Origin: an uncultured delta proteobacterium
GTDB taxonomy: Bacteria > Desulfobacterota > RBG-13-43-22
Length of the DNA: 64,000 nt
Reading direction: 5' to 3'
Assembly: GCA_963711835.1 (NCBI GenBank)
Contig: CAVQFQ010000017.1
Span: forward strand, 96,001 to 160,000
Positions 762 through 54,970 of the stretch are shown here, piece after piece. Below the pieces are notes generated by a model. It saw only the letters and a list, made by a program, of their open reading frames with translations. It did not search any database and had not been told where the DNA came from. The position numbers and the translations under genes are program-made. The stretch's first letter is position 1. Each line of letters starts with the position of its first letter.

Positions 762-1093
762 GAGTTTGTCCCAAAGTTACGTGATTTTTAAGCACTCCAT
801 TCGTCGAGGGCTTCGGGGGTCTTGATTTCAAGGTTGTCCGAAAGGTTATCCATAGCCCCAACCCGGCCTGAATTTCTAAGTTGGTTGGGAGCCGGGCATT
901 CACCCAAAACGATAAATAGCTTTGGTGTTGGCCTGTTTCTAAACCCCATTATAAACTTCCTGCCCGGGTTCAGGCTGCCGGCGTTTTGGCGGACAATCCT
1001 TGAAATCAAGACCCCTGAAGCCCTTTGGGGTGATTCAAGATTTTAAGAGGCTACTCCTTCGGTTTGAGAATCACGTAACTTTGGGACTATCCC
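762..1093. mobile_element. Nested MITE-like element copy A (shell type 1; 202-bp core 815-1016)
   Basis: Outer IR GTCCCAAAGTTACGTGATT / AATCACGTAACTTTGGGAC; inner IR AGGGCTTCGGGGGTCTTGATTTCAAGG / CCTTGAAATCAAGACCCCTGAAGCCCT; flanks TAAAATTA / CGAAATTA. Confidence 0.8.
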
Positions 1094-3786: not shown

Positions 3787-4051
3787 GGCTCCTTCCCCTT
3801 TTGGAAAACTTAAAAAACAAGATACCCAACCCCCCAAACGATCAACAATGGAGAAAAATTTCAACTAGCTTTGGTTAGGTATTTATTCTTGACCGGTTCG
3901 AGCATAAGGGACACCTGGGGAAGGTTGCAAGATCTTTTTTAATCCCCGGTTACCGGAAGATGCGTTTACTTTTTTGCCGCTCTATCCTACTATGGCCGGA
4001 GCGAAAGCAGGGGCGGGCCAGAGGTTCGCCCGCAGATCGGAGGAGCAGGGC

Positions 4052-7136: not shown

Positions 7137-7205
7137 AGTATCGTTCAAAAGTCAGGGCACTGGCGCATTATTGCTGGACTAGGGGACCGGGGGTTCCGAA
7201 CGACT
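7137..7205. repeat. Internally deleted remnant of shell type 2 element (copy B)
   Basis: AGTATCGTTCAAAAGT...GGCACTGGCGCATTAT...GGGGACCGGGGGT matches the left arm of the 17407 copy, then stops at the core boundary. Confidence 0.7.
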
Positions 7206-17327: not shown

Positions 17328-17808
17328 TTTTTGCCACCGACAAAACAGGACGGGTGGGCGAACCGCCCACCAACCCGTCAGCGCCTTTGGCGAATGATAA
17401 TGATTTAGTATCGTTCAAAAGTTGTGGCACTAGCGCATTATGGCCTGACTGGGAACCGGGGGTCTCGATTTCAAGGCTTGTCCAAAGGGTGATCCTTCCC
17501 GCCAATCCGGCCCAGGTTTCTAAGGTTGTTTAGAGCCGGGCATTCACCCAACCGAACAAACAGCTTTGGTGTAGGCCTACTTAAGGCATTATCGTCAACC
17601 TTCCAGCCCGGTTTCAACGTGAGGAGTTTATGGTGGACAACCTTGAAATCGAGACCCCCGGTTCCCTTCCATCGGGTATTAGAAATATAAACCCACAACT
17701 TTTGAACGATGCCAATGATTTTCAACTCGCCAAGCGAAGGCTGTTTTTGACCGGCGGGGTTCGCCGGTCAAAATAATAGGTCCGTTTTTGTCTGAGTGGC
17801 TGTGGCTA
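17328..17808. repeat. REP-like multi-hairpin element interrupted by MITE copy C
   Basis: TTTTTGCCACCGACAAA...GTCAGCGCCTTTGGCG and CTCGCCAAGCG match the reverse complement of 21581-21683. Confidence 0.65.
17407..17713. mobile_element. Nested MITE-like element copy C (shell type 2, 307 bp; core 17458-17659)
   Basis: TIR AGTATCGTTCAAAAGTTGTGG / CCACAACTTTTGAACGATGCC; perfect 8-bp direct repeat AATGATTT at 17399-17406 and 17714-17721. Confidence 0.88.
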
Positions 17809-19988: not shown

Positions 19989-21578
19989 ATGGAGACCTTC
20001 AAGAACATCTTTTCGATGGCCATTCCCCTGGTCTGGCTTTTCATTCTAATCTCCCCGGGTGGAGCCGGGGCAGCCATCACCCAGCTTAACGGCACCCTCC
20101 CTACCGACAGCCTGATTTATGACTGGCAGGCCAGCCCCGACAGCAGCCATGTCGTTTACAGCACCGGCCCTGGTCGCTATTACAGAAATGCCTTATTCAG
20201 CGTCCCGGCCGGAGGGGGTACGGCGGTCCAGATCACCCCGCCGGTCACAGGGGATGAAAGGATTATTTCCTATCAAATCAGCCCGAATAGCACTCGGGTG
20301 GTTTTTTTGATGAGGCCTTCGGAATATGCCGCTTCTGAAATTTACAGTGTGCCGATTGGCGGGGGGGCAGTCACTAAGCTCAACGAGAACATCAGCAGCC
20401 AGGTCAATACCTTTCTCTTCACGCCTGACAGCCAGAAGGTCGTTTATCAAGCGGTAGTTCCCATTATCAACCAATGGGGTCTTTACAGTGTCCCCCTTGC
20501 CGGACCGGCAACCAGCAGCCTGAGAATCGACACCAATCCAAGCTACCATGTCGATTCAGGTTTTAAGATTTCACCGGACAGCAGCCGGGTGGTCTACCGG
20601 GCACCCTGTACCTATGGTCCGGATGGAGGTCAGGCCTGCTCTGGCATGTACAGCGTACCCATTGCCGGCGGCCTCCCTGCCAAGCTTAGCCTAGATTATG
20701 CCTACAATACTGTATGGAGCGGGATCGAGATCAGCCCGGACAGCCAATATGTGGTTTACCGTGCTACCTACTACAACCCCGGAATGTCCGGCCAGGGTGA
20801 CATTTACAGCATCCCCATCGCCGGTTCAACCTCAGACCTGCTCCGGCTCTCACATTATATAGCTGGGGCCGTCACTACTTGGCAGATCAGCCCGGACAGC
20901 AGCCGGGTAGTCTTCATAGCCATGCAGGATACAGCCGGTACCTCCGAACTCTACAGCATCCCCATCCGTTTGGCCGGTCCAGTGGTCAAATTGAACGGGC
21001 CCTTGGGAACCAATGGGCAAGTGTATGAGTTTGTTATAGGCCCGGATGGCAGCCGGGTAGCCTACAGGAGTGGAAATGAATCCAGCAGCGACACCGTTGA
21101 ACTTTACAGCATCCCGATTGACGGTTCTGCCTCAGCCATCAGGATAAATCAGTCCCTTTCTGGCACTGGGTTTCAGCACCAGCGTTTTATGTTTTCCCCG
21201 AACAGCCAGCGGGTGGTCTTTGAAATAGGTAGTAATCTCTTCGGTGCCCCGGCTGTCGGCCCCTCCAGCCAGCAGGCCCTTGTGGGCACCATTTATGACG
21301 CTACCATGCCCTTCGATGTCAGCCAGGATTCTTCCGGGGTCTACTACACATTCAATGGGAACCTCTTTAAATCTCCGATTGCAGGACCAATTGGGAATAC
21401 AGTCAAATTGGACGGCCCACCCAATCATACGCTCTGGTATCCATCTTTAGATACTTTCCTGGAAACCCCAGATGGCCTCAAGCTTATTTATTCGGCCGAC
21501 CAATGCACCAACCTCTATGCCGTCGACGCCGCCATAAACTTTCCCCATTTATTGTTCCTGCCACTGGTGATCAGATAA
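19989..21578 (+). CDS. Secreted TolB/PD40-like beta-propeller repeat protein with C-terminal FLPLV tail
   Basis: Signal peptide ending AGA-A; ten SPDS..VV[YF]-type repeats; ends LLFLPLVIR. Confidence 0.85.
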   Translation: METFKNIFSMAIPLVWLFILISPGGAGAAITQLNGTLPTDSLIYDWQASPDSSHVVYSTGPGRYYRNALFSVPAGGGTAVQITPPVTGDERIISYQISPNSTRVVFLMRPSEYAASEIYSVPIGGGAVTKLNENISSQVNTFLFTPDSQKVVYQAVVPIINQWGLYSVPLAGPATSSLRIDTNPSYHVDSGFKISPDSSRVVYRAPCTYGPDGGQACSGMYSVPIAGGLPAKLSLDYAYNTVWSGIEISPDSQYVVYRATYYNPGMSGQGDIYSIPIAGSTSDLLRLSHYIAGAVTTWQISPDSSRVVFIAMQDTAGTSELYSIPIRLAGPVVKLNGPLGTNGQVYEFVIGPDGSRVAYRSGNESSSDTVELYSIPIDGSASAIRINQSLSGTGFQHQRFMFSPNSQRVVFEIGSNLFGAPAVGPSSQQALVGTIYDATMPFDVSQDSSGVYYTFNGNLFKSPIAGPIGNTVKLDGPPNHTLWYPSLDTFLETPDGLKLIYSADQCTNLYAVDAAINFPHLLFLPLVIR

Positions 21579-30318: not shown

Positions 30319-30625
30319 GGTAACGTTCAAAAGTTGAGGCATTATATTTCTGATACCCGATGAAAGGGACCAGGGGTCTCGATTTCAAGGATTGTCCGCC
30401 AAATCGCCGGCACCCTGACCCCGGGCAGGAAGTTTATAAGTGGGTTTAGAAACAGGCCAACACCAAAGCGATTTATCGTCTTAGGTGAATGCCCGGCTCC
30501 CAACCAACTTAGAAATTCGGGCCGGATTGGGGCTACGGATTACCTTTCGGACAACCTTGAAATCGAGACCCCCGGTCCCCAAGTCAGGCAATAATACACC
30601 AGTGCCACAACTTTTGAACGTTACC
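30319..30625. mobile_element. Nested MITE-like element copy D (shell type 2, 307 bp, opposite orientation to C; core 30372-30573)
   Basis: TIR GGTAACGTTCAAAAGTTG / CAACTTTTGAACGTTACC; flanks AACGGGGT / AAGGGGGT (7 of 8 match). Confidence 0.88.
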
Positions 30626-37250: not shown

Positions 37251-38030
37251 TCAGTTCAAAAGGGACTTGTCCCGCAGGATGGTTAAAAGGGCCGCAGCCT
37301 TTTCCAAAGGGCTCCCTGAAAGGACCAACCCGGGACGGGACCTTTGGGGAAACGAAAAACCGAGGGTCTCCTGAAGGGGCGGGTCCTGTTTTAAGCTGCC
37401 GGCCGGGATGATTTCCAGTTCCTGTTTTTTTGCCCGGAGGACATTGGAAAGGGAGGGATAACGCGGTTTATTGATGCCGCTTTGGATACTGAGAACGGCC
37501 GGCCAGGCCAATTTTAACTGTTCCCGGAGGCCTCCCTCAATTTCCCGTTCCACATGGACGGCCTTGCCCTCCATGGAGAGGGCCAGGGAAATCACGGACG
37601 TAGCCAAGGAGAGGGAGAGAAATTCCGCCAGCAGAGGGCCCACCTGACCTTCCATATCATCCTCGGCCATAACGCCCACAAGGATCAGGTCATAAGGATG
37701 CCGGCTCCCGTACCAGGCAATCCAGGAGGCGACTTGAAAAGGGCTGAGGACCGATTCTTCCGCGCTGAGGATGTGAATGCCCTGATCGGCCCCCATCCCC
37801 AGGCAGCGCCTGACCACCGTCTCGGATCGCCGAGGTCCGACGCTGATGACGTCGACGGAGCTTTGGGGAATGGCCGCCTTGAGAACAAGGGCCTCTTCAA
37901 CGGCAAATTCATCAAAGTAATTCATTTTAAAGAGAGGCGAAGGAACGGTGACCAGCTTGGATCCGGAGGGATCAATCTGTAGGGTCCCTTCGGGATCGAG
38001 GACCTCTTTGACGCAAACCAGGATCTTCAT
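37251..38030 (-). CDS. etfB: Electron transfer flavoprotein beta subunit
   Basis: MKILVCVK, FDEFAVEEAL, GMGAD and NKPRYPS. Confidence 0.93.
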   Translation of the reverse strand: MKILVCVKEVLDPEGTLQIDPSGSKLVTVPSPLFKMNYFDEFAVEEALVLKAAIPQSSVDVISVGPRRSETVVRRCLGMGADQGIHILSAEESVLSPFQVASWIAWYGSRHPYDLILVGVMAEDDMEGQVGPLLAEFLSLSLATSVISLALSMEGKAVHVEREIEGGLREQLKLAWPAVLSIQSGINKPRYPSLSNVLRAKKQELEIIPAGSLKQDPPLQETLGFSFPQRSRPGLVLSGSPLEKAAALLTILRDKSLLN

Positions 38031-38075
38031 TTTTGATAAGGGCGCTACGTTTAGAATACAGGGCGATTAAATACT

Positions 38076-38371
38076 AAGCAAAGATCTTTGCAATTTTTTC
38101 TAAAGTCCTGAATAAATGGTGTAGGGGGGCCCTATTTTTTAAGTTGTCCAAAGGGTGACTAAGAGCCCCTAATCCGGCCCGAATAACTAAGTTTATGTTA
38201 GAGCAGGGCATTCACCAACGCCTATTTCCAGCCTGGGTGTAGGCCTGCTGATGAAATAGGGTTCGCATTTTGGCCCGGCAAAGAAGCTTATGGCTTTGGG
38301 GTGGACAACTCAAAAAATAGGACCCCCCTACACCTGATATTTGAAAATTAGATATAAATTCCCAGAATTAA
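38076..38371. mobile_element. Nested element copy E (shell type 3; core 38125-38327)
   Basis: Inner IR GGTGTAGGGGGGCCCTATTTTTTAAGTTGTCCA / TGGACAACTCAAAAAATAGGACCCCCCTACACC; shares core motifs with copies A, C and D; outer ends approximate. Confidence 0.75.
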
Positions 38372-38463
38372 GAGTATTACAATCTATCAAATGTAAGGAA
38401 GAAAGAGTTCTTAATCAAGGAAAAAAATGATATAGTAAGCAACCTCTTTTTTGGACACCTCCA

Positions 38464-39171
38464 ATGGGCGATCTTTACGTTATACGACATGCGCAGGCCT
38501 CTTTCGGGAAGCCCGATTACGACCAGCTCTCCAGGCTCGGGTTTCGCCAGGCTTCCCTCCTGGAAGGGTATTTGTCCCATCTGGGGGTTGGGTTTGAAGT
38601 AGTCTTTTCCGGGGCTATGAAGCGCCACTTAGACACCGCCCAGCCCCTCCTGGCCTGCCTGGGACCGGATACCGACCCGGAAGCCTTGACCGTTCTATCC
38701 GAGTTCAACGAGTATGATTCGTCTTCCCTGATGCAGATCCAATTGCCCCATCTGACCCGGGAAGACCCTTCTCTGGAAAAGGACCTGGCCAATATTTACA
38801 CCGATCCCAAGGCCGTTTATCGCCTCTTAAACCGGGCCATCCTGCGCTGGATATCCGACCCGGACGTCGGCTCAGGCATTGAGACCTGGACTGAATTCAC
38901 CCAAAGGGTTCGGAAAGGCATCAATCGGGTTATCGAGGAAGCCGGGAAGGGCAAGACCATCGCCCTGGTAACCTCCGGCGGGCCGATTTCAGCCCTGCTT
39001 CAACTGGCCCTTTCCCTGTCCGACCAGGAAACCATCCATTTGGCCTGGCAACTTCGAAACGCCTCGGTTTCCATCTTTAAGTACAACCGGAAGCGCTTAA
39101 CCCTGGATTCCTTCAATTCCGTGGCCCATCTGGAAAAAGAGAAGGATCCGACTTTGATAACTTACCGCTAA
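38464..39171 (+). CDS. Histidine phosphatase family protein
   Basis: IRHAQASFG, FNEYD and VTSGG. Confidence 0.88.
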   Translation: MGDLYVIRHAQASFGKPDYDQLSRLGFRQASLLEGYLSHLGVGFEVVFSGAMKRHLDTAQPLLACLGPDTDPEALTVLSEFNEYDSSSLMQIQLPHLTREDPSLEKDLANIYTDPKAVYRLLNRAILRWISDPDVGSGIETWTEFTQRVRKGINRVIEEAGKGKTIALVTSGGPISALLQLALSLSDQETIHLAWQLRNASVSIFKYNRKRLTLDSFNSVAHLEKEKDPTLITYR

Positions 39172-39208
39172 AGACACCTATTTTTCAGTAACCGGAAAGG
39201 AGTACCCA

Positions 39209-40414
39209 ATGGATTTTGAAATATCGGACAAGATGAAAGCCGTTTTGGAGATGATGAACGAGTTCCTGGAAAAGGAGGTCATTCCTCTGGAGCCGGAATA
39301 CCTGAACCGATCCTTCGTGGGTATGCTCCCCGAACTGGAGGAAAAAAGAAGGATCGTCAAGCAGATGGAGCTCTGGGCCCCCCAGCATCCCAAGGAATAC
39401 GGGGGCATGGGTCTGGATATTATTGAATTCGGTCTGGTATCTGAGGTCCTGGGCCAATCCCCTCTCGGACACTTCGTCTTCGGGGCCCAGGCCCCGGATG
39501 CCGGCAATATCGAGATCCTGCACCTCCACGGCACGGAGGAGCAAAAAAAGACCTATTTGAAACCCCTGGTGGCAGGGGAAATCCGGAGCTGTTTTTCCAT
39601 GACCGAAGTGGAACTGGCCGGCTCCAACCCGGTGCTGCTGGCCACAACCGCGGTGAAGGACGGTGATGATTACGTCATCAACGGCCACAAGTGGTACACT
39701 TCCAGCGCCGACGGCGCCGCCTTTGCCATCGTCATGGCCGTCACCAATCCCGAGGCCTCCCCCTACTTGCGGGCCAGCATGATTATTGTCCCTACGGACA
39801 GGCCGGGTTTTAATCTGGTCCGCAACATCCCGGTCATGGGCCATCAGGGTTCCGGTTGGGCCAGCCACGGCGAGATCCTCTACCAGAACTGCCGGGTCCC
39901 CCAAAAAAACCTTCTCGGCCCCGAGGGCGCCGGCTTTGTCATTGCCCAGGAACGGTTGGGCCCCGGCCGGATCCATCACTGCATGCGCTGGATCGGCATC
40001 TGCAATCGGGCCTTTGCCCTGATGTGCTCCCGGGCCCTGAACCGCGAGATCGCCCCGGGCAAGACCCTGGCCACCCGCCAGATCATCCAGGCCTGGATCG
40101 CCGAAGGCGCGGCCGAAATTCAGGCCGCCCGCCTCATGGTCCTCCATGCCGCCTGGAAGATGCACCATCTGGGTCAGAAAGAGGCCCGGGAAGAGATTTC
40201 CCTGATCAAATTTTACACGGCCGGAGTCATGCAAAAAGTGGTGGACCGGGCCATCCAGGTCCACGGCGGTCTGGGCATGTCGGACGACACTGTCCTGGCC
40301 TTTTTCTTCCGCCATGAGAGGGCGTCCCGGATCTATGACGGGGTGGATGAAGTCCACAAGGTGACGGTGGCCCGGAGGATTTTAAGGGAATACGAGGGCA
40401 AGAAAGTTCGCTGA
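39209..40414 (+). CDS. Acyl-CoA dehydrogenase, ACAD10/11 / LvaC-like
   Basis: [25 protein letters not shown] and RIYDGVDEVH. Confidence 0.92.
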   Translation: MDFEISDKMKAVLEMMNEFLEKEVIPLEPEYLNRSFVGMLPELEEKRRIVKQMELWAPQHPKEYGGMGLDIIEFGLVSEVLGQSPLGHFVFGAQAPDAGNIEILHLHGTEEQKKTYLKPLVAGEIRSCFSMTEVELAGSNPVLLATTAVKDGDDYVINGHKWYTSSADGAAFAIVMAVTNPEASPYLRASMIIVPTDRPGFNLVRNIPVMGHQGSGWASHGEILYQNCRVPQKNLLGPEGAGFVIAQERLGPGRIHHCMRWIGICNRAFALMCSRALNREIAPGKTLATRQIIQAWIAEGAAEIQAARLMVLHAAWKMHHLGQKEAREEISLIKFYTAGVMQKVVDRAIQVHGGLGMSDDTVLAFFFRHERASRIYDGVDEVHKVTVARRILREYEGKKVR

Positions 40415-40422
40415 GGTGCCGG

Positions 40423-41490
40423 ATGGATTTTAAAGATACAGCCACGACCATACGGGCAGGGGAGGAACTGGATATCCCCAAGCTGGAGGCCTTCCTAAAA
40501 GAGGCCCTCCCTGGGCTGGAAGGCCCTCTGGTCATTAGGCAATTTCCCAAGGGCTATTCCAACTTGACCTACCTGCTCCATTTCGACAACCGCGAAGTGG
40601 TGCTGCGCCGGCCCCCTATCGGGACCAAAGCCAAGACCGCCCATGACATGAAGCGGGAATACCGGATCCTCACGGCCCTGCGGCCGGTATTCCCCTATTG
40701 TCCGGAACCCCTGGTTTATACTGAAGATGAAGCCGTCATGGGCTGTCCCTTCTACCTCATGGAGCGCCTGAACGGCATCATCCTGCGCAAAGAACTGCCC
40801 CCGGACCTGGTGTTCACCCCGGATCAGGCCCGGCGGCTTTTTGAAAGATTCCTGGATGTGCTGGTGGAACTTCATTCCATCGACTATAAAAAAATCGGCC
40901 TGGAGAATTTCGGCAAGCCGGAAGGGTATGTGCGCCGGCAGGTCGAGGGCTGGAGCAATCGCTACCGGGCGGCCCGGACCCCGGACGCCCCGGATTTTGA
41001 AACCGTCATGGCCTGGATCGCCGAAAAGATGCCCCCTGATACGGACCGGCCGACCATCGTCCATAACGATTACCGTCTGGACAACATGGTCCTGGATGAA
41101 AAGGACCCTTTCAAAATCATCGGGGTCCTGGACTGGGAAATGGCCACTATCGGAGACCCTCTCATGGATCTGGGCAATACCCTGGCCTATTGGGTCGAAA
41201 AGGACGATCCGCCGGAGAGTCATCTGCTGCGGAACATGCCTACCCACATTGAGGGGGCCCTGACGCGGAAGGAAGTGGTGGCGCGCTATGCCCAAAAAAC
41301 CGGCCGATCCCTGACTCAGGTTGACTTTTACCACTGCTTCGGGATCTTTCGGTTGGCCGTTATCGCTCAGCAGATCTACTACCGCTTTTACCACGGCCAG
41401 ACCAAGGACGCGCGTTTTCAGGCTTTAATCCACGGGGTTCGGATCCTGGAACAGGCCGCCCTCAGGATCCTGGAACAAGCCCAACCCTGA
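40423..41490 (+). CDS. APH-fold kinase, ACAD10/11 N-terminal / LvaA-like
   Basis: GYSNLTY, LRRPP, AHDMKREY, HNDYRLDN and LDWEMATIGDP. Confidence 0.9.
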   Translation: MDFKDTATTIRAGEELDIPKLEAFLKEALPGLEGPLVIRQFPKGYSNLTYLLHFDNREVVLRRPPIGTKAKTAHDMKREYRILTALRPVFPYCPEPLVYTEDEAVMGCPFYLMERLNGIILRKELPPDLVFTPDQARRLFERFLDVLVELHSIDYKKIGLENFGKPEGYVRRQVEGWSNRYRAARTPDAPDFETVMAWIAEKMPPDTDRPTIVHNDYRLDNMVLDEKDPFKIIGVLDWEMATIGDPLMDLGNTLAYWVEKDDPPESHLLRNMPTHIEGALTRKEVVARYAQKTGRSLTQVDFYHCFGIFRLAVIAQQIYYRFYHGQTKDARFQALIHGVRILEQAALRILEQAQP

Positions 41491-41568
41491 ACCCTTGTTT
41501 TTGAAAACCTAAAGGAGAACTGAAATTTCTTGACCCTTGACAGGGACAGGAAAATCAGGTTAAAACCC

Positions 41569-41862
41569 AAGCAAAGATATCCGAAATTTTTTCCCAAGTC
41601 TTGAAGGAATGGTGTTGGGGGGTCCTATTTTTTAAGTTGTCCACCCCAAAGCCAGGAGCTTCTTTGCCGGGTCAAAATCGGATAGTGTTTTGGCAGCAGG
41701 CCTACACCCAAGCTGGAAATGGGCTGGGGTGTAGGCCCTGCTCTCAAATGATCTTAGCTATTCGGGCCGGATTGGGGGCTCTTAGTCACCTTTTGGACAA
41801 CTTAAAAAATAGGACCCCCCAACACCGGATATTGGAACGTTAGAGATATATTCTCAGATTAA
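41569..41862. mobile_element. Nested element copy F (shell type 3; core 41618-41819, inverted relative to E)
   Basis: Inner IR GGTGTTGGGGGGTCCTATTTTTTAAGTTGTCCA / TGGACAACTTAAAAAATAGGACCCCCCAACACC; flanks colinear with E; outer ends approximate. Confidence 0.78.
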
Positions 41863-41930
41863 AAAATGTAAAAATCTGATTGGGTTGGATTATGTCCGAT
41901 CTTAATCACGATTCTATAAGGAGGATTTTT

Positions 41931-42395
41931 ATGGAGAAAAATGTCTGTTATACCTTTGATCAGGCCTTAAAGCTGGCCATCAAACGTGAAAAGGCCTCTC
42001 TTAAACTTTATAATGACTGGTCTTCCAAGGCCAAGGACCCGGCAGCCAAAAAGTTTTTTAAGGACCTGGCCCTGGAGGAACTGGACCATGTGCACCTCCT
42101 GGAACGGGCCCTTTATGAAGGAAAGGCCGAGGGCTTGGGAGACAAAGAGGTCCAGACCATGAAGTTGAGCGACTATTTTATCGATATCGAACTGGCCGGC
42201 GATCTCTCCCTCCAGGATGCCATGATTTTTGCCTTAAAGGATGAAAAACAGTCCGCCGAATTTTACAAAAACATGGCCGGCATGTGCGGCGGCAGCCCCA
42301 TGCAGAGTCTTTTTAACCGCCTGGAGAAAGAGGAACTGAGGCATATTCAAACATTGGAAGGCGATTACGAAAAGGCCTTCATGCAGTGGATGTAA
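41931..42395 (+). CDS. Rubrerythrin/ferritin-like di-iron protein
   Basis: Two E...EExH motifs (AIKRE..EELDH; ALKDE..EELRH); AGGAGG RBS. Confidence 0.88.
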   Translation: MEKNVCYTFDQALKLAIKREKASLKLYNDWSSKAKDPAAKKFFKDLALEELDHVHLLERALYEGKAEGLGDKEVQTMKLSDYFIDIELAGDLSLQDAMIFALKDEKQSAEFYKNMAGMCGGSPMQSLFNRLEKEELRHIQTLEGDYEKAFMQWM

Positions 42396-44263: not shown

Positions 44264-45385
44264 ATGAACCGGACTCTATAAACATCGTCTTCAAAAGTGC
44301 AGCCAGTTAATGAAGGCCGTCAACCTGGATGTCCTGCTGCTGACCAAGCCCTCAAATATGTTCTATCTTACCGGCGACGGGCGCCTCTGCGCTTACGCCA
44401 TGGTCACCCAGGAAGGGAAGGTGGCCCTGGGCGTACCCCAAACCGACCTTGAAGACGTTAAGCAGTTGGCCCACTTTCGACCATCTCAACGGCTTTGAAA
44501 ACGAGGTGGGGATGATCCATTCCATTGCCCATTACTTTGAGCGATTCCAGATACAGAAAGGGTCAGGTGGGGATGGAATTTACTTTCCTGACTCAGTCCA
44601 TGATGGGCATGCTGACCCATCCCCATGCCAAACCCAAGGATATTCTGGTCAAGGATGCCACGGCGATTCTCTCCGAACTGCGCCTGGTCAAGGAAGCGGA
44701 AGAGATTGAACGGATTCGTGAGGCATCACGGGTAGCTTCTGTCGGGATGAAAGCCGCTGTGGAGGCTGTTAAACCGGGACTCACGGAAAGCCAGATAGCC
44801 GCCGAGGCCGAATATGCCCTGCGCCAGGCCGGTGCCGAAGATTTTTGGAAGACCTATGTTTCTTCCGGTCCCCGGACCAGTGTCGCCCACGGGGTGCCCA
44901 CCTCGCGAAAATTGGAAACCGGGGATCTGGTCATGATTGATATTCATCCTTTGGTCAACGGCTATAGCTCCGACATCTGCCGGACCGTTTCGGTGGGAAA
45001 ACCGACTGCCGAACAACAAACCGCCTATGACCTGTATATCAAGGCCCTGCTGGCCACCATTGCTAAGGTCAAGGCCGGGGCAGACATGGTCGATCTGGAA
45101 GAGACCATGCATGGGATCCTCAAGGAAGCCGGCCACGGCCCGCATATCTTCGGACCACTCATCCATGGGATAGGCATCAATTTTGAAGAATCGCCTTTGC
45201 CGCCCAGCCATGCCTTCTTCCACGGCGAGAAGGCGCCCCCGCCCCTTCCTTCCGGGGTGGTCATAGCCGTTGGAAACTGTGGATTGTATACCGGTCCTTG
45301 GGGGGTTCGGGTGGAAGATACGATAGCGGTTGGAGCTGAGGGCCCATTGCGGTTGACCGATTTCCCTTACTCCCTGACGATATAG
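44264..45385 (+). CDS. M24 Xaa-Pro peptidase family protein; frameshifts in the 5' part
   Basis: AAGGAGG then ATG 44264; fragments NMFYLTG, LRLVKEAEEI, GYSSDICRT, HGIG and GVRVED. Confidence 0.82.
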
Positions 45386-53672: not shown

Positions 53673-54803
53673 ATGCTGGAACGCCTCAAGCAGATATTGA
53701 TCAAGGAATTCATCCAGATCCTTCGGGATCCCCGAGTCAGGGGCGTGGTTTTTGCCATGCCGGTTATTCAAATGGTCCTCTTCGGGTATGCGGTGACCAC
53801 CGATGTCAAGCATGTGGCCACGGCCGTTTATGACCTGGACCAGAGCGTTGCCAGCCGGGAGATCGTGGCCCGTTTTGTCCGATCGGGGTATTTCGACATT
53901 GTTTCCCATGTGACCCGGGAAGAAGAGGTGCAGGCTCTGCTGGACCGCGGACAGGTCCAGGCCCTGCTGCGCCTGAACAAAGGACTGGAAGAAAACCTGA
54001 AAGGCGGGAGGCCGGCGGCCATCCAGCTTATCGTGGATGGGACCGATTCCAATACCGCCGCTATTGTCTTAAATTATAGCGGCAAAATTGCGGCCGAATA
54101 TTCTCAGGAAATTTTAATAGACCGTTGGGCTCGCCTGCGTGGCCTTAATCAGAAACCGGGGCGGGTGGAGTTGGAGTCCCGAGCCTGGTTTAATGAAAAC
54201 CTGGAGAGTCGAAATTTTTATGTGCCCGGCGTCATCGCTTTGCTGGTCATGCTCATCACCCTGATGTTAACCAGCATGGCCGTGGTCCGGGAAAAGGAGA
54301 TCGGGACCATGGAGCAGATCATGGTCACTCCCATTACTCCGAAGGAATTTATTTTAGGGAAGACCATTCCTTTCGCCCTGATCAGTTTCATTGATGTGAT
54401 CTTGATCACCCTCGTGGGGGTATTCTGGTTCGAGGTCCCTATCCGGGGAAGTCTGTTGTTGCTCCTCTTGGCCACCGGGCTTTATGTCATGACCACCCTG
54501 GCGGTAGGACTTTTCATTTCCACGGTCAGCCGCACCCAGCAGCAGGCCATGATGAGCGCCTTCTTTTTTAACTTTCCGGCCGTGCTGCTCTCGGGATTCG
54601 TCTTCCCCATCGCCAATATGCCCGAAGTGATCCAGTGGCTCACCTACCTCAATCCCCTGCGGTATTTCCTGATCATCATTCGCGGGGTTTTCCTTAAAGG
54701 GGTGGGATTCATGATTCTCTGGCCGCACATGGCGGCCCTGACGGTAATGGGCCTGCTGACCTTGTGGCTGGCCTCGCGAAGGTTTCAAAAAACCATGACC
54801 TAA
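53673..54803 (+). CDS. ABC-2 permease (YbhR-like)
   Basis: KEFIQILRD, VREKEIGTMEQ and NPLRYF. Confidence 0.92.
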   Translation: MLERLKQILIKEFIQILRDPRVRGVVFAMPVIQMVLFGYAVTTDVKHVATAVYDLDQSVASREIVARFVRSGYFDIVSHVTREEEVQALLDRGQVQALLRLNKGLEENLKGGRPAAIQLIVDGTDSNTAAIVLNYSGKIAAEYSQEILIDRWARLRGLNQKPGRVELESRAWFNENLESRNFYVPGVIALLVMLITLMLTSMAVVREKEIGTMEQIMVTPITPKEFILGKTIPFALISFIDVILITLVGVFWFEVPIRGSLLLLLLATGLYVMTTLAVGLFISTVSRTQQQAMMSAFFFNFPAVLLSGFVFPIANMPEVIQWLTYLNPLRYFLIIIRGVFLKGVGFMILWPHMAALTVMGLLTLWLASRRFQKTMT

Positions 54804-54931
54804 CAGGTTGATGAAAAACGCCCATCTGCTGTGTTGCCCTCGTCCCTCGTCATACCGGCGTACTTATATGTACGCCTCATTCCTCGGAAGTTCGGGCGCC
54901 TTGCATCTGAGCATTTTTGATCAACCTGTTA
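54801..54931. mobile_element. 131-bp palindromic MITE-like element
   Basis: TAACAGGTTGAT / ATCAACCTGTTA ends; central GGCGTAC / GTACGCC stem. Confidence 0.7.
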
Positions 54932-54970
54932 ACTCAGGTTTGGATTAAATCACCAAATATGGAGGCGGGT

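Follow-up and report, generated by a model that had tools for sequence, protein, structure and literature searches.

A gene-less mobile repeat with a core that lies in either orientation between short inverted arms in an uncultured delta proteobacterium

Copies E and F of a short intergenic repeat, located in the 64,000-nucleotide stretch of DNA that was analysed (the window), raise the question of whether the segment between their inner inverted arms turns over in place and, if it does, whether this affects the adjacent genes. A sequence-only reading had described two co-directional shells around a flipped core, and repeat comparison bore this out. The left shells (E 38067-38150 and F 41560-41643, family D11) were 83% identical and the right shells (E 38302-38385 and F 41794-41877, family D12) 81% identical in direct orientation, while the interior matched in reverse (I2, I4), the E core (151 bp) and F core (150 bp) having 125 matching positions as reverse complements and 78 on the same strand. 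The inner inverted repeats of roughly 33 bp were likewise found (two mismatches in E, none in F), and the strings quoted for the start of one core and the end of the other, located at 38147 and 41776-41799, are the same but for a single difference. Copy F was present as claimed, but it ends at about 41878 and not at 41862. A contig of sequencing run X3 joins position 38073 to 38384 with three letters fitting either side, which corresponds to an empty E site plus a 3-bp duplication. The nearest cores to E (96.9% identity) and F (95.3%) were both of opposite orientation. Feature coordinates are presented in Table 1.

Table 1. Positions in the window of copies E and F, their parts, the neighbouring genes and three further copies.
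Feature	Position	Strand	Basis
Copy A, same cassette, shell S1 (8-bp duplication class), forward core	762..1093	+	repeat comparison, shell consensus
Copy B, same cassette, shell S2 (8-bp duplication class), forward core	17407..17713	+	repeat comparison, shell consensus
Copy C, shell S2 with S1-type core, forward relative to shell	30319..30625	-	repeat comparison, core tree
etfB (PF01012), left neighbour of E	37251..38030	-	open reading frame and domain match
Copy E, whole element, shell type S3	38074..38386	+	includes 3-bp target duplication 38074-38076 / 38384-38386
E left shell	38077..38117	+	direct repeat D11, shell consensus
E left inverted arm, 33 bp	38118..38150	+	inverted repeat I12
E core, forward, 151 bp	38151..38301	+	repeat comparison
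E right inverted arm, 2 mismatches to left arm	38302..38334	-	repeat comparison
E right shell	38335..38383	+	direct repeat D12, shell consensus
Histidine phosphatase (PF00300), right neighbour of E	38464..39171	+	open reading frame and domain match
TTGACA hexamer upstream of F	41537..41542	+	sequence; no -10 partner passing the promoter scan
Copy F, whole element, shell type S3	41567..41878	+	decayed 3-bp duplications 41567-41569 / 41876-41878; empty site at end of strain locus L284
F left shell	41570..41610	+	direct repeat D11
F left inverted arm, 33 bp, perfect match to right arm	41611..41643	+	inverted repeat I16
F core, reversed, 150 bp	41644..41793	-	inverted pairs I2, I4
F right inverted arm	41794..41826	-	inverted repeat I16
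F right shell	41827..41875	+	direct repeat D12
Rubrerythrin-like gene (PF02915), right neighbour of F	41931..42395	+	open reading frame and domain match

E and F belong to a multi-copy family with insertion polymorphism and target duplications. This genome held 137 core loci, 108 of them with both arms, in gene-less elements of about 310 bp, and the family was found only within this bacterial family in a search across the phylum whose sensitivity was limited by a single-sequence query and two scored candidates per genome. The cassette of arms and core was carried in several shell types. Terminal inverted repeats were present in S1, S2 and S4 and were not seen in S3, to which E and F belong; AT-rich 8-bp target duplications flanked 16 of 26 S1 and 18 of 25 S2 copies, and S3 inserts at a TA-containing target. 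Each of the four types included shells without a core, whose junctions varied in S1, S2 and S4; most of the arms are missing from these empty shells, and they look like deletions. Core identity averaged 67%, with invariant blocks. A degenerate arm pattern gave no match in the genome-contig collection, while a 15-base core pattern hit 109 viral stretches, none of which matched the core profile. No paper listed in literature searches dealt with this repeat family or with a cassette common to several MITE classes.

Both core orientations were found in four shell types and were scattered over the core tree. Forward and reverse copies numbered 20:6 in S1, 22:3 in S2, 14:2 in S4 and 6:8 in S3 (binomial p 0.009, 0.0002, 0.004 and 0.79, respectively), so that the tally over shell-3 copies which had been proposed earlier returned both orientations. 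The fewest orientation changes on the core tree equalled the number of minority copies in each shell (S1, 6; S2, 3; S3, 6; S4, 2), and the reversed share was larger in the more diverged types (divergence, then reversed copies: S4 0.035, 2/16; S2 0.045, 3/25; S1 0.046, 6/25; S3 0.067, 7/13). For two loci present as near-duplicates, one copy apiece was omitted from the tree, from this comparison and from the mirrored-arm counts below. The strong orientation bias in three shell types suggests that flipping is slow. With forward parents assumed and nearest-neighbour divergence taken as age, the core would flip approximately 5-10 times as often as any one base is substituted, a pace like that of mutation and far slower than phase variation.

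One flip could be followed between species. At the lpdA-tautomerase site of genomes G010 and G014 both flanks aligned in the same direction, at 88% and 92%, and the cassette aligned to the opposite strand at 95%; the two copies shared derived shell and arm variants, and genomes G008, G016 and G020 had no element at this site. Because the two species carry opposite orientations at one orthologous site, the flip occurred in place. Only two cross-species orthologous pairs with both flanks were found, this discordant pair and a concordant one.

The arms change in concert. Departures from the arm consensus that were mirrored in the partner arm numbered 6 in S1, 27 in S2, 19 in S3 and 3 in S4 against shuffle means of 0.4, 7.0, 3.8 and 0.3, the S4 count being equalled in 3 of 2000 shuffles, and one-sided arm differences in this genome (88) exceeded mirrored ones (55). 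Mirrored changes can also come down from a parent copy. Among 95 dereplicated cassettes five arm positions were near random (1.8-1.9 bits) yet 85%-93% complementary, and arm mismatches comprised 64 G-T and 58 A-C pairs and showed no RNA strand bias. Concerted change at the DNA level fits template switching or arm-to-arm recombination. Such copying was not limited to a single place in the element: core ends were copied onto each other in three copies, an inner hairpin loop was reversed in one, and the outer terminal repeats of S1 were swapped in two and equalised in one of 26 copies. Three S1 copies with a reversed core kept the outer arm mismatch on the side of the shell, and the inner asymmetry moved with the core, so that the crossover falls within a 17-bp interval, part of which is conserved from shell to shell. 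We had considered the five variable arm positions as a recombinase overlap region and rejected this for S1, where in the same three copies a mismatch immediately internal to these positions does not move with the core but remains with the shell.

The explanation we favour, and hold to be reasonably probable, is that E and F are gene-less mobile repeats in which a 150-bp core between 33-bp arms flips in place occasionally, likely via template switching or arm-to-arm recombination and without a dedicated invertase or regulatory role. Movement of the whole element would depend on transposases that work in trans at the shell ends, of an IS630-like type for S4 and a Mutator-like type for S1 and S2. 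The S4 ends agreed with those of an intact IS630 element in genome G007 at 23 of 28 and 24 of 27 bases; for S2, 12 of 12 subterminal bases were shared with an IS256 element of genome G001, and for S1, 11 of 12 end bases with an IS4-type element, both being short matches. No exact autonomous partner of S1 or S2 was found among the IS loci compared, and the S3 shell matched none of the IS ends compared (five transposase families and IS110, among the matches listed). Within the element, the arms may pair in single-stranded DNA, where a polymerase switch or a crossover within the arms would copy one arm onto the other and sometimes invert the core; the same arm homology could delete the core, leaving empty shells, and exchange cores between shells.

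Template switching homogenises arms and inverts spacers in the systems described in the available text of PMC8604942 and PMC5941160. As far as these accounts and PMC8794818 go, the likeness extends to arms that stay complementary despite drift, multi-base mirrored changes, the lack of a dedicated enzyme and repeated, reversible inversion of the spacer in place. The published inversions, as there described, involve 2-5 substitutions in yeast genes and 4-8-nt rRNA loops, a spacer of a few bases, whereas here the spacer is 150 bp and the arms are 26-33 bp. Published spacers are short, with shorter ones favoured, and 150 bp is far longer. Unlike the published cases, the structure sits in a mobile repeat and therefore recurs at more than 100 loci. 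The 17-bp crossover stretch would also fit a site-specific enzyme, and the conservation of the core is left unexplained by accidental flipping.

A transposase could instead flip and homogenise the cassette during or after transposition, for example in a single-stranded copy-out intermediate, whether it is the shell transposase or one that binds the terminal motif of the core. The core ends do have a likeness to the terminal repeat of S1 and, in relatives, to an IS4-type end; inversion is reported for the Correia MITE of Neisseria (PMC10969869, in the part available); and selection for a paired stem at transposition would likewise keep the arms matched. We nevertheless consider this rather unlikely: the flip between genomes G010 and G014 took place at an insertion site common to both, the shells that show flips belong to unrelated transposase classes, and no transposase locus examined carried core or arms, save one unrelated IS inserted into a core. 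The core was absent from the transposase loci of relatives (among the matches listed, 29 PF01609, 30 IS630, 17 IS256, 19 IS1595, 3 UPF0236 and 30 IS110), PF13751, PF13358, PF00872, PF12762 and PF06782 had no match in this genome, and no long shell pair in it encloses its own transposase. A DDE gene within one copy (L012) was tried as an autonomous partner and proved to belong to a distinct IS that has ends of its own and is flanked by a duplication of 7 bp.

Two further readings involve an enzyme acting in trans on the arms. Arms and core may form a distinct kind of hitch-hiking cassette that is never alone and travels in MITEs whose transposase families are unrelated (IS630-like, Mutator-like and others); a recombinase or transposase reading the conserved arm motif would invert it, delete it or exchange it between these MITEs. 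This we regard as doubtful. Also unlikely in our judgement is a trans-acting site-specific recombinase that reads a conserved part of the arm and inverts, deletes or exchanges the cassette, with some copies possibly being phase-variable switches. In its favour are an inner arm motif conserved over at least five shell types and several species, the confinement of the three S1 crossovers to 17 bp, S1-type cores inside 8 of 25 S2 shells, and the presence in the genome of seven tyrosine-recombinase matches and two IS110 genes. Against it, no recombinase gene was found between 33 and 47 kb of the window, the genome (89% complete) gave no serine recombinase match, and seven of eight recombinase matches lay more than 3 kb from any copy. 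The strong orientation bias, the strain-variable presence of E and F and cores with no promoter or terminator match do not suit it either, nor does the arm show lox-like half-site symmetry on inspection of the sequence. The core also matched neither the 30 IS110 loci of the bacterial family (among the matches listed) nor the genome's own two, which sets it apart from an IS110 bridge-RNA element.

It is very unlikely that the cassette is a transposon which entered empty shells in either direction and never flipped. Core-less shells exist (11 of S3) and both orientations occur, but two species carry one insertion in opposite orientations, which would otherwise require that near-identical cassettes had landed there twice independently; moreover, no direct duplication is visible beside the arms, the empty shells lack most of the arms as after a deletion, and a recognised shell end borders 106 of the 108 complete cassettes on one or both sides, the remaining two lying in other inverted-repeat shells. 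Least probable of all, at a very low level, is that misassembly at the inverted arms produced the reversed cores. In favour of this, the F arms form a perfect 33-bp repeat, which words of up to 33 letters leave ambiguous, the core tree shows no relation to orientation, and the genomes have the look of metagenome assemblies. Against it, mismatched arms flank some of the reversed cores (C18:29408, C4:201970, C15:41712 and C9:17346), reversed cores have their own sequence differences, target duplications match in several reversed S1 and S2 copies, and duplicated loci within the assembly agree in orientation. The orientation of E is not an assembly ambiguity, since its arms share at most 12 identical consecutive bases. 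Contigs from 4 of 24 sequencing runs (best word share 0.38), aligned to the E-F region and to a 20-kb element-rich stretch of contig C18, gave no orientation information because they break at the arms; the sole opposite-strand joint at F, from other strains, was the repeat itself (33 letters, all shared), and no joint among those listed for the C18 stretch was informative.

Phase-variable switches made of invertible DNA (invertons) include fimS, hin and the Bacteroides capsule promoters. The gene context given for E, between etfB and the phosphatase, and for F, between the TTGACA at 41537 and the rubrerythrin-like gene, agreed with the positions in Table 1. The earlier interpretation stood in part: inversion between arms of about 33 bp was supported by the orthologous locus of two species, but a switch for etfB, the phosphatase or the rubrerythrin-like gene was not supported. 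Close strains lack the elements (E at strain locus L283 and in run X3, F at L284), so presence is strain-variable. Scans for sigma-70 promoters and terminators, with other promoter types outside their scope, gave no match above chance and none within the E or F core, and the TTGACA had no scored -10 partner. The direction of the core bore no relation to that of neighbouring genes (28 with, 23 against). Invertons, as described in the part of bioRxiv 10.1101/2023.03.11.532203 available, resemble E and F as intergenic segments between inverted repeats in two orientations; here there was no linked invertase and no promoter match inside, arm sequence varied between copies, presence was strain-variable, the loci were unrelated and numbered more than 100, and the orientation bias suggests slow change.

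Other products of the cassette were also considered. It had no 3-base periodicity (p 0.996), and ideas of a small peptide, helical periodicity or an attC site were dropped, with no periodicity at 3, 10.5 or 11 bases and attC compared by eye only. Rfam gave only a weak Plant_SRP match (28.5 bits against a cut-off of 105). A structured non-coding RNA was set aside, as covariation was confined to the arms with no G-U bias, a comparison that invariant helices would escape.

As short, non-coding elements in many copies, with target duplications (8 bp in S1 and S2, 3 bp in E) and empty sites for E and F, the repeats resemble MITEs. IS630-family MITEs use a TA target; the S4 ends match the G007 element and the S3 target contains TA, whereas no terminal inverted repeat was seen in S3 and the G007 element carries neither arms nor core. 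The AT-rich 8-bp duplications of S1 and S2 recall prokaryotic Mutator-like IS (IS256 / ISH6, p-MULT 1-2), of which ISH6 duplicates an AT-rich 8-bp motif according to the available part of PMC3942029, but the end matches are short and the S1 end is also IS4-like. A gene-less intergenic element from 2017 work, as cited in the accessible portions of PMC10969869 and PMC5874624, is similarly short, multi-copy and bounded by inverted repeats, with both orientations at a locus and a proposed effect on neighbours; in the present family, by contrast, an inner cassette flips within a separately oriented shell, the flipped part has no promoter match, and the cassette is common to shells of different transposon classes.

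If the favoured explanation is right, the family provides clear natural data on how short inverted repeats in bacteria invert a 150-bp spacer and copy their arms, each genome supplying more than 100 replicates and a pair of species dating one flip. The family also advises caution in inverton prediction, as repeat-flanked intergenic DNA in two orientations need not be a switch. Were the hitch-hiking cassette acted on in trans, the lineage would have more than 100 flippable sites per genome, and if cassette sharing is driven by an enzyme, that would add a new layer to mobile DNA and might yield a tool for recombination. The odd feature of the family is that one conserved cassette is carried in MITE shells with both IS630-like and Mutator-like ends.

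Copies E and F of the gene-less mobile repeat, each built of an outer shell, inverted arms and a core, have shells lying in the same direction (83% identity on the left and 81% on the right over 84 bases) and 33-bp arms. The core of E matched that of F at 125 of 151 positions as its reverse complement versus 78 on the same strand, which bears out the sequence-only reading of a core flipped within same-direction shells, and the cores nearest to E (96.9%) and to F (95.3%) were each of opposite orientation. Both copies are accessory insertions. Among the contig runs compared with the window, the E site is unoccupied in run X3, where one contig joins 38073 directly to 38384, and one contig in run X1 skips 41566-41918, the F region. 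The metagenome locus L283 (95% identical) has different DNA at the position of E, and a second locus, L284 (97%), terminates in an empty F site with another S3 copy about 50 bases upstream of it.

Positions, shell types and neighbouring genes of copies E and F in the window
Feature	Position	Shell	Neighbours
Copy E	38074-38386	S3	etfB; histidine phosphatase
Copy F	41567-41878	S3	APH-family gene; rubrerythrin-like gene

Within the 3.9-Mb assembly an iterated profile search located 137 core loci, 108 of them with both arms, which make up about 0.9% of the genome. Arms and core form a cassette of about 215 bp which is housed in several shell types and was found solely within shells, and shells without a core are present for all four types (S1 to S4). 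The core is conserved, with 67% mean identity and invariant blocks. Terminal inverted repeats bound shells S1 and S2, and 8-bp duplications with no more than one mismatch flank 16 of 26 S1 copies and 18 of 25 S2 copies. S4 likewise ends in terminal repeats, with a short AT target, and S3 has a 3-bp duplication and no terminal repeat. The ends of S4 are identical to those of an intact IS630 element of a related genome, G007, at 23 of 28 and 24 of 27 bases; an IS256 end has 12 bases in common with S2, and an IS4-type end 11 of 12 with S1. An 8-bp AT-rich duplication, as in S1 and S2, is in keeping with Mutator-like insertion sequences as described in a published excerpt (PMC3942029). Eight of the 25 S2 shells hold an S1-type core, and S2 arms have their inner 17 bases in common with S1. 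Of 20 other genomes of the family 13 contained the element, versus none of 20 from other families; in a wider draw, by a low-sensitivity single-sequence search, it was found in 9 of 13 genomes of the family and none of 387 others. A literature search listed nothing on this repeat family.

In the source genome (G000, where the window is C17:96001-160000), S1 copies lay nested within other shells, in an end or an arm, at C16:1480-2000, C18:49380-49700, C17:14270-14900 and C25:44980-45330; two of these loci had clear 8-9-bp duplications and one was a three-way chimera. Such nesting is a possible route for cassette movement between shells. A further shell (C17:43700-44070, C22:9790-10060), whose ends resemble those of the IS630 element of G007, encloses another kind of cassette that has similar arms. 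Truncated remnants at 3794-3834 and 7137-7199 of the window represent a single arm and the left half of an S2 shell. A separate insertion sequence (L012:311-2477, on C10), which has terminal repeats of its own and a duplication of 7 bp, lies inside the small hairpin of an S2-copy core; an A-run in the overlap of its two ORFs (190-aa HTH, 423-aa DDE) suggests a programmed frameshift. Parts of the core were replaced or interrupted in many copies by short GC-rich REP-like hairpins at recurring positions (e.g. C10:7097, C4:201970, C8:27185).

Comparison of 105 full copies from nine relatives together with the G000 copies gave two cross-species pairs with both flanks in common. Core orientations agree in the G010/G016 pair. 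At the G010/G014 site, from lpdA to a tautomerase gene, identity is 88% and 92% for the flanks, aligned on one strand, and 95% for the cassette, aligned on the opposite strand; the two copies have derived shell and arm letters in common, and three further genomes lack the element there. The flip is real and occurred in place, and the proposed inversion of the core between its arms is upheld at this site. In copies whose two shell ends were both classified, forward to reverse cores, relative to their own shell, numbered 20:6 in S1, 22:3 in S2, 14:2 in S4 and 6:8 in S3, the last being the tally put forward as a check in the sequence-only reading, which returned both orientations. A profile-based recount gave 31:10, 21:3, 14:1 and 10:11, respectively. 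On a core tree of 82 rows with few strongly supported branches, the minimum number of orientation changes equalled the minority-copy count in every shell type and was no fewer than with shuffled labels, which is evidence for repeated flips.

Phase-variation rates are about 1e-2 to 1e-5 per generation, and flipping at such rates would be expected to make forward and reverse cores, as read against their shells, about equally common at unrelated loci. Orientation was biased in S1 (p 0.009), S2 (p 0.0002) and S4 (p 0.004) and was even in S3 alone, the most diverged type. From the reversed share divided by half the nearest-core divergence we infer approximately 5-10 flips per unit per-base substitution, assuming forward parents and an unbiased process. 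A directional enzyme could produce the same bias. No recombinase gene was found in 33-47 kb of the window, and G000 gave seven tyrosine-recombinase, no serine and two IS110 matches, only one recombinase match lying within 3 kb of a repeat copy and no similarity to the cassette being found for the tyrosine-recombinase and IS110 matches. That the reversed cores are assembly errors is unlikely, because mismatched arms occur among the reversed copies, across which target duplications also match.

Three near-duplicate locus pairs in G000 (C17:356243/C27:8506, C17:360843/C27:3958 and C1:79/C21:25640), with flanks 96-100% identical and core orientation agreeing in each pair, are likely strain duplicates within the assembly. 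In G015, one copy is flanked twice by the left shell end and another twice by the right (L097 and L099), which could reflect a recombination event between two copies of opposite orientation, conversion over long tracts, or errors in a fragmented assembly.

The two arms of a copy evolve together. Departures from consensus that were mirrored between the arms numbered 6, 27, 19 and 3 in S1 to S4 versus 0.4, 7.0, 3.8 and 0.3 in shuffled pairings, although some may be inherited; overall, 88 arm differences were one-sided versus 55 mirrored. After dereplication at 90%, 95 cassettes remained; in these, five positions of the arm were near-random in sequence yet 85-93% complementary, and G-T (64) and A-C (58) mismatches were equal, which points to copying at the DNA level, not RNA pairing. 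The repeat belongs to no recognisable RNA family. The copying and inversion process is not confined to a single site: three copies had one core end copied onto the other, two had their outer S1 repeats swapped and one had them equalised, and the inner hairpin loop was reversed in one. Published excerpts (PMC8604942, PMC5941160, PMC8794818) describe template switching at inverted repeats as giving arm homogenisation and reversible spacer inversion, and between the inverted arms it would produce both the homogenisation and the core inversion seen here. Since the cases in those excerpts have spacers of only a few bases, whereas the core here is about 150 bp, homologous recombination between the arms may also contribute.

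The suggestion that the flip acts as a switch for the genes beside E and F was not supported. A scan for sigma-70 promoters and intrinsic terminators gave no match inside either core, with counts over the regions at chance level, and the TTGACA box upstream of F had no scored -10 partner. In tandem contexts, core direction was independent of that of the neighbouring genes (28 agreeing and 23 opposed, from crude ORF calls). The 300-bp insertion has a predicted fold of about -55 kcal/mol (z -5.3), and an insertion folded in this way could, whichever way round it lies, still affect expression of the gene that follows it. The repeat behaves like a hairpin-associated inversion carried by a MITE. 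Among bacteria its nearest precedent is the Correia element, reported to invert in a published excerpt (PMC10969869). Assignment to the invertons was not supported: the repeat differs from them in two defining features, a promoter, terminator or coding part in the core and a fixed place in the regulated locus. On two others, coexistence of both orientations in one population and an invertase acting on the arms, the contigs compared break at the arms, and a recombinase could act in trans. The inversion in this layered mobile repeat is real and recurrent, and it is probably passive rather than a switch.

At the contig ends of C13 and C15 in G000 lie two IS110-family genes, related to each other and followed by a long non-coding region, that show no similarity to the cassette. 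Inverted ends of 39 nt bound an unrelated repeat of about 150 bp at 54791-54941 of the window, and an element resembling it occupies the lpdA site in G016 (L225). Repeats at about 150-bp spacing at 20124-21219 are likely units inside a protein-coding gene. A peptidase-like gene at 44310-45385 is apparently split over overlapping ORFs (44310-44498, 44449-44709 and 44525-45385), which suggests a frameshift.
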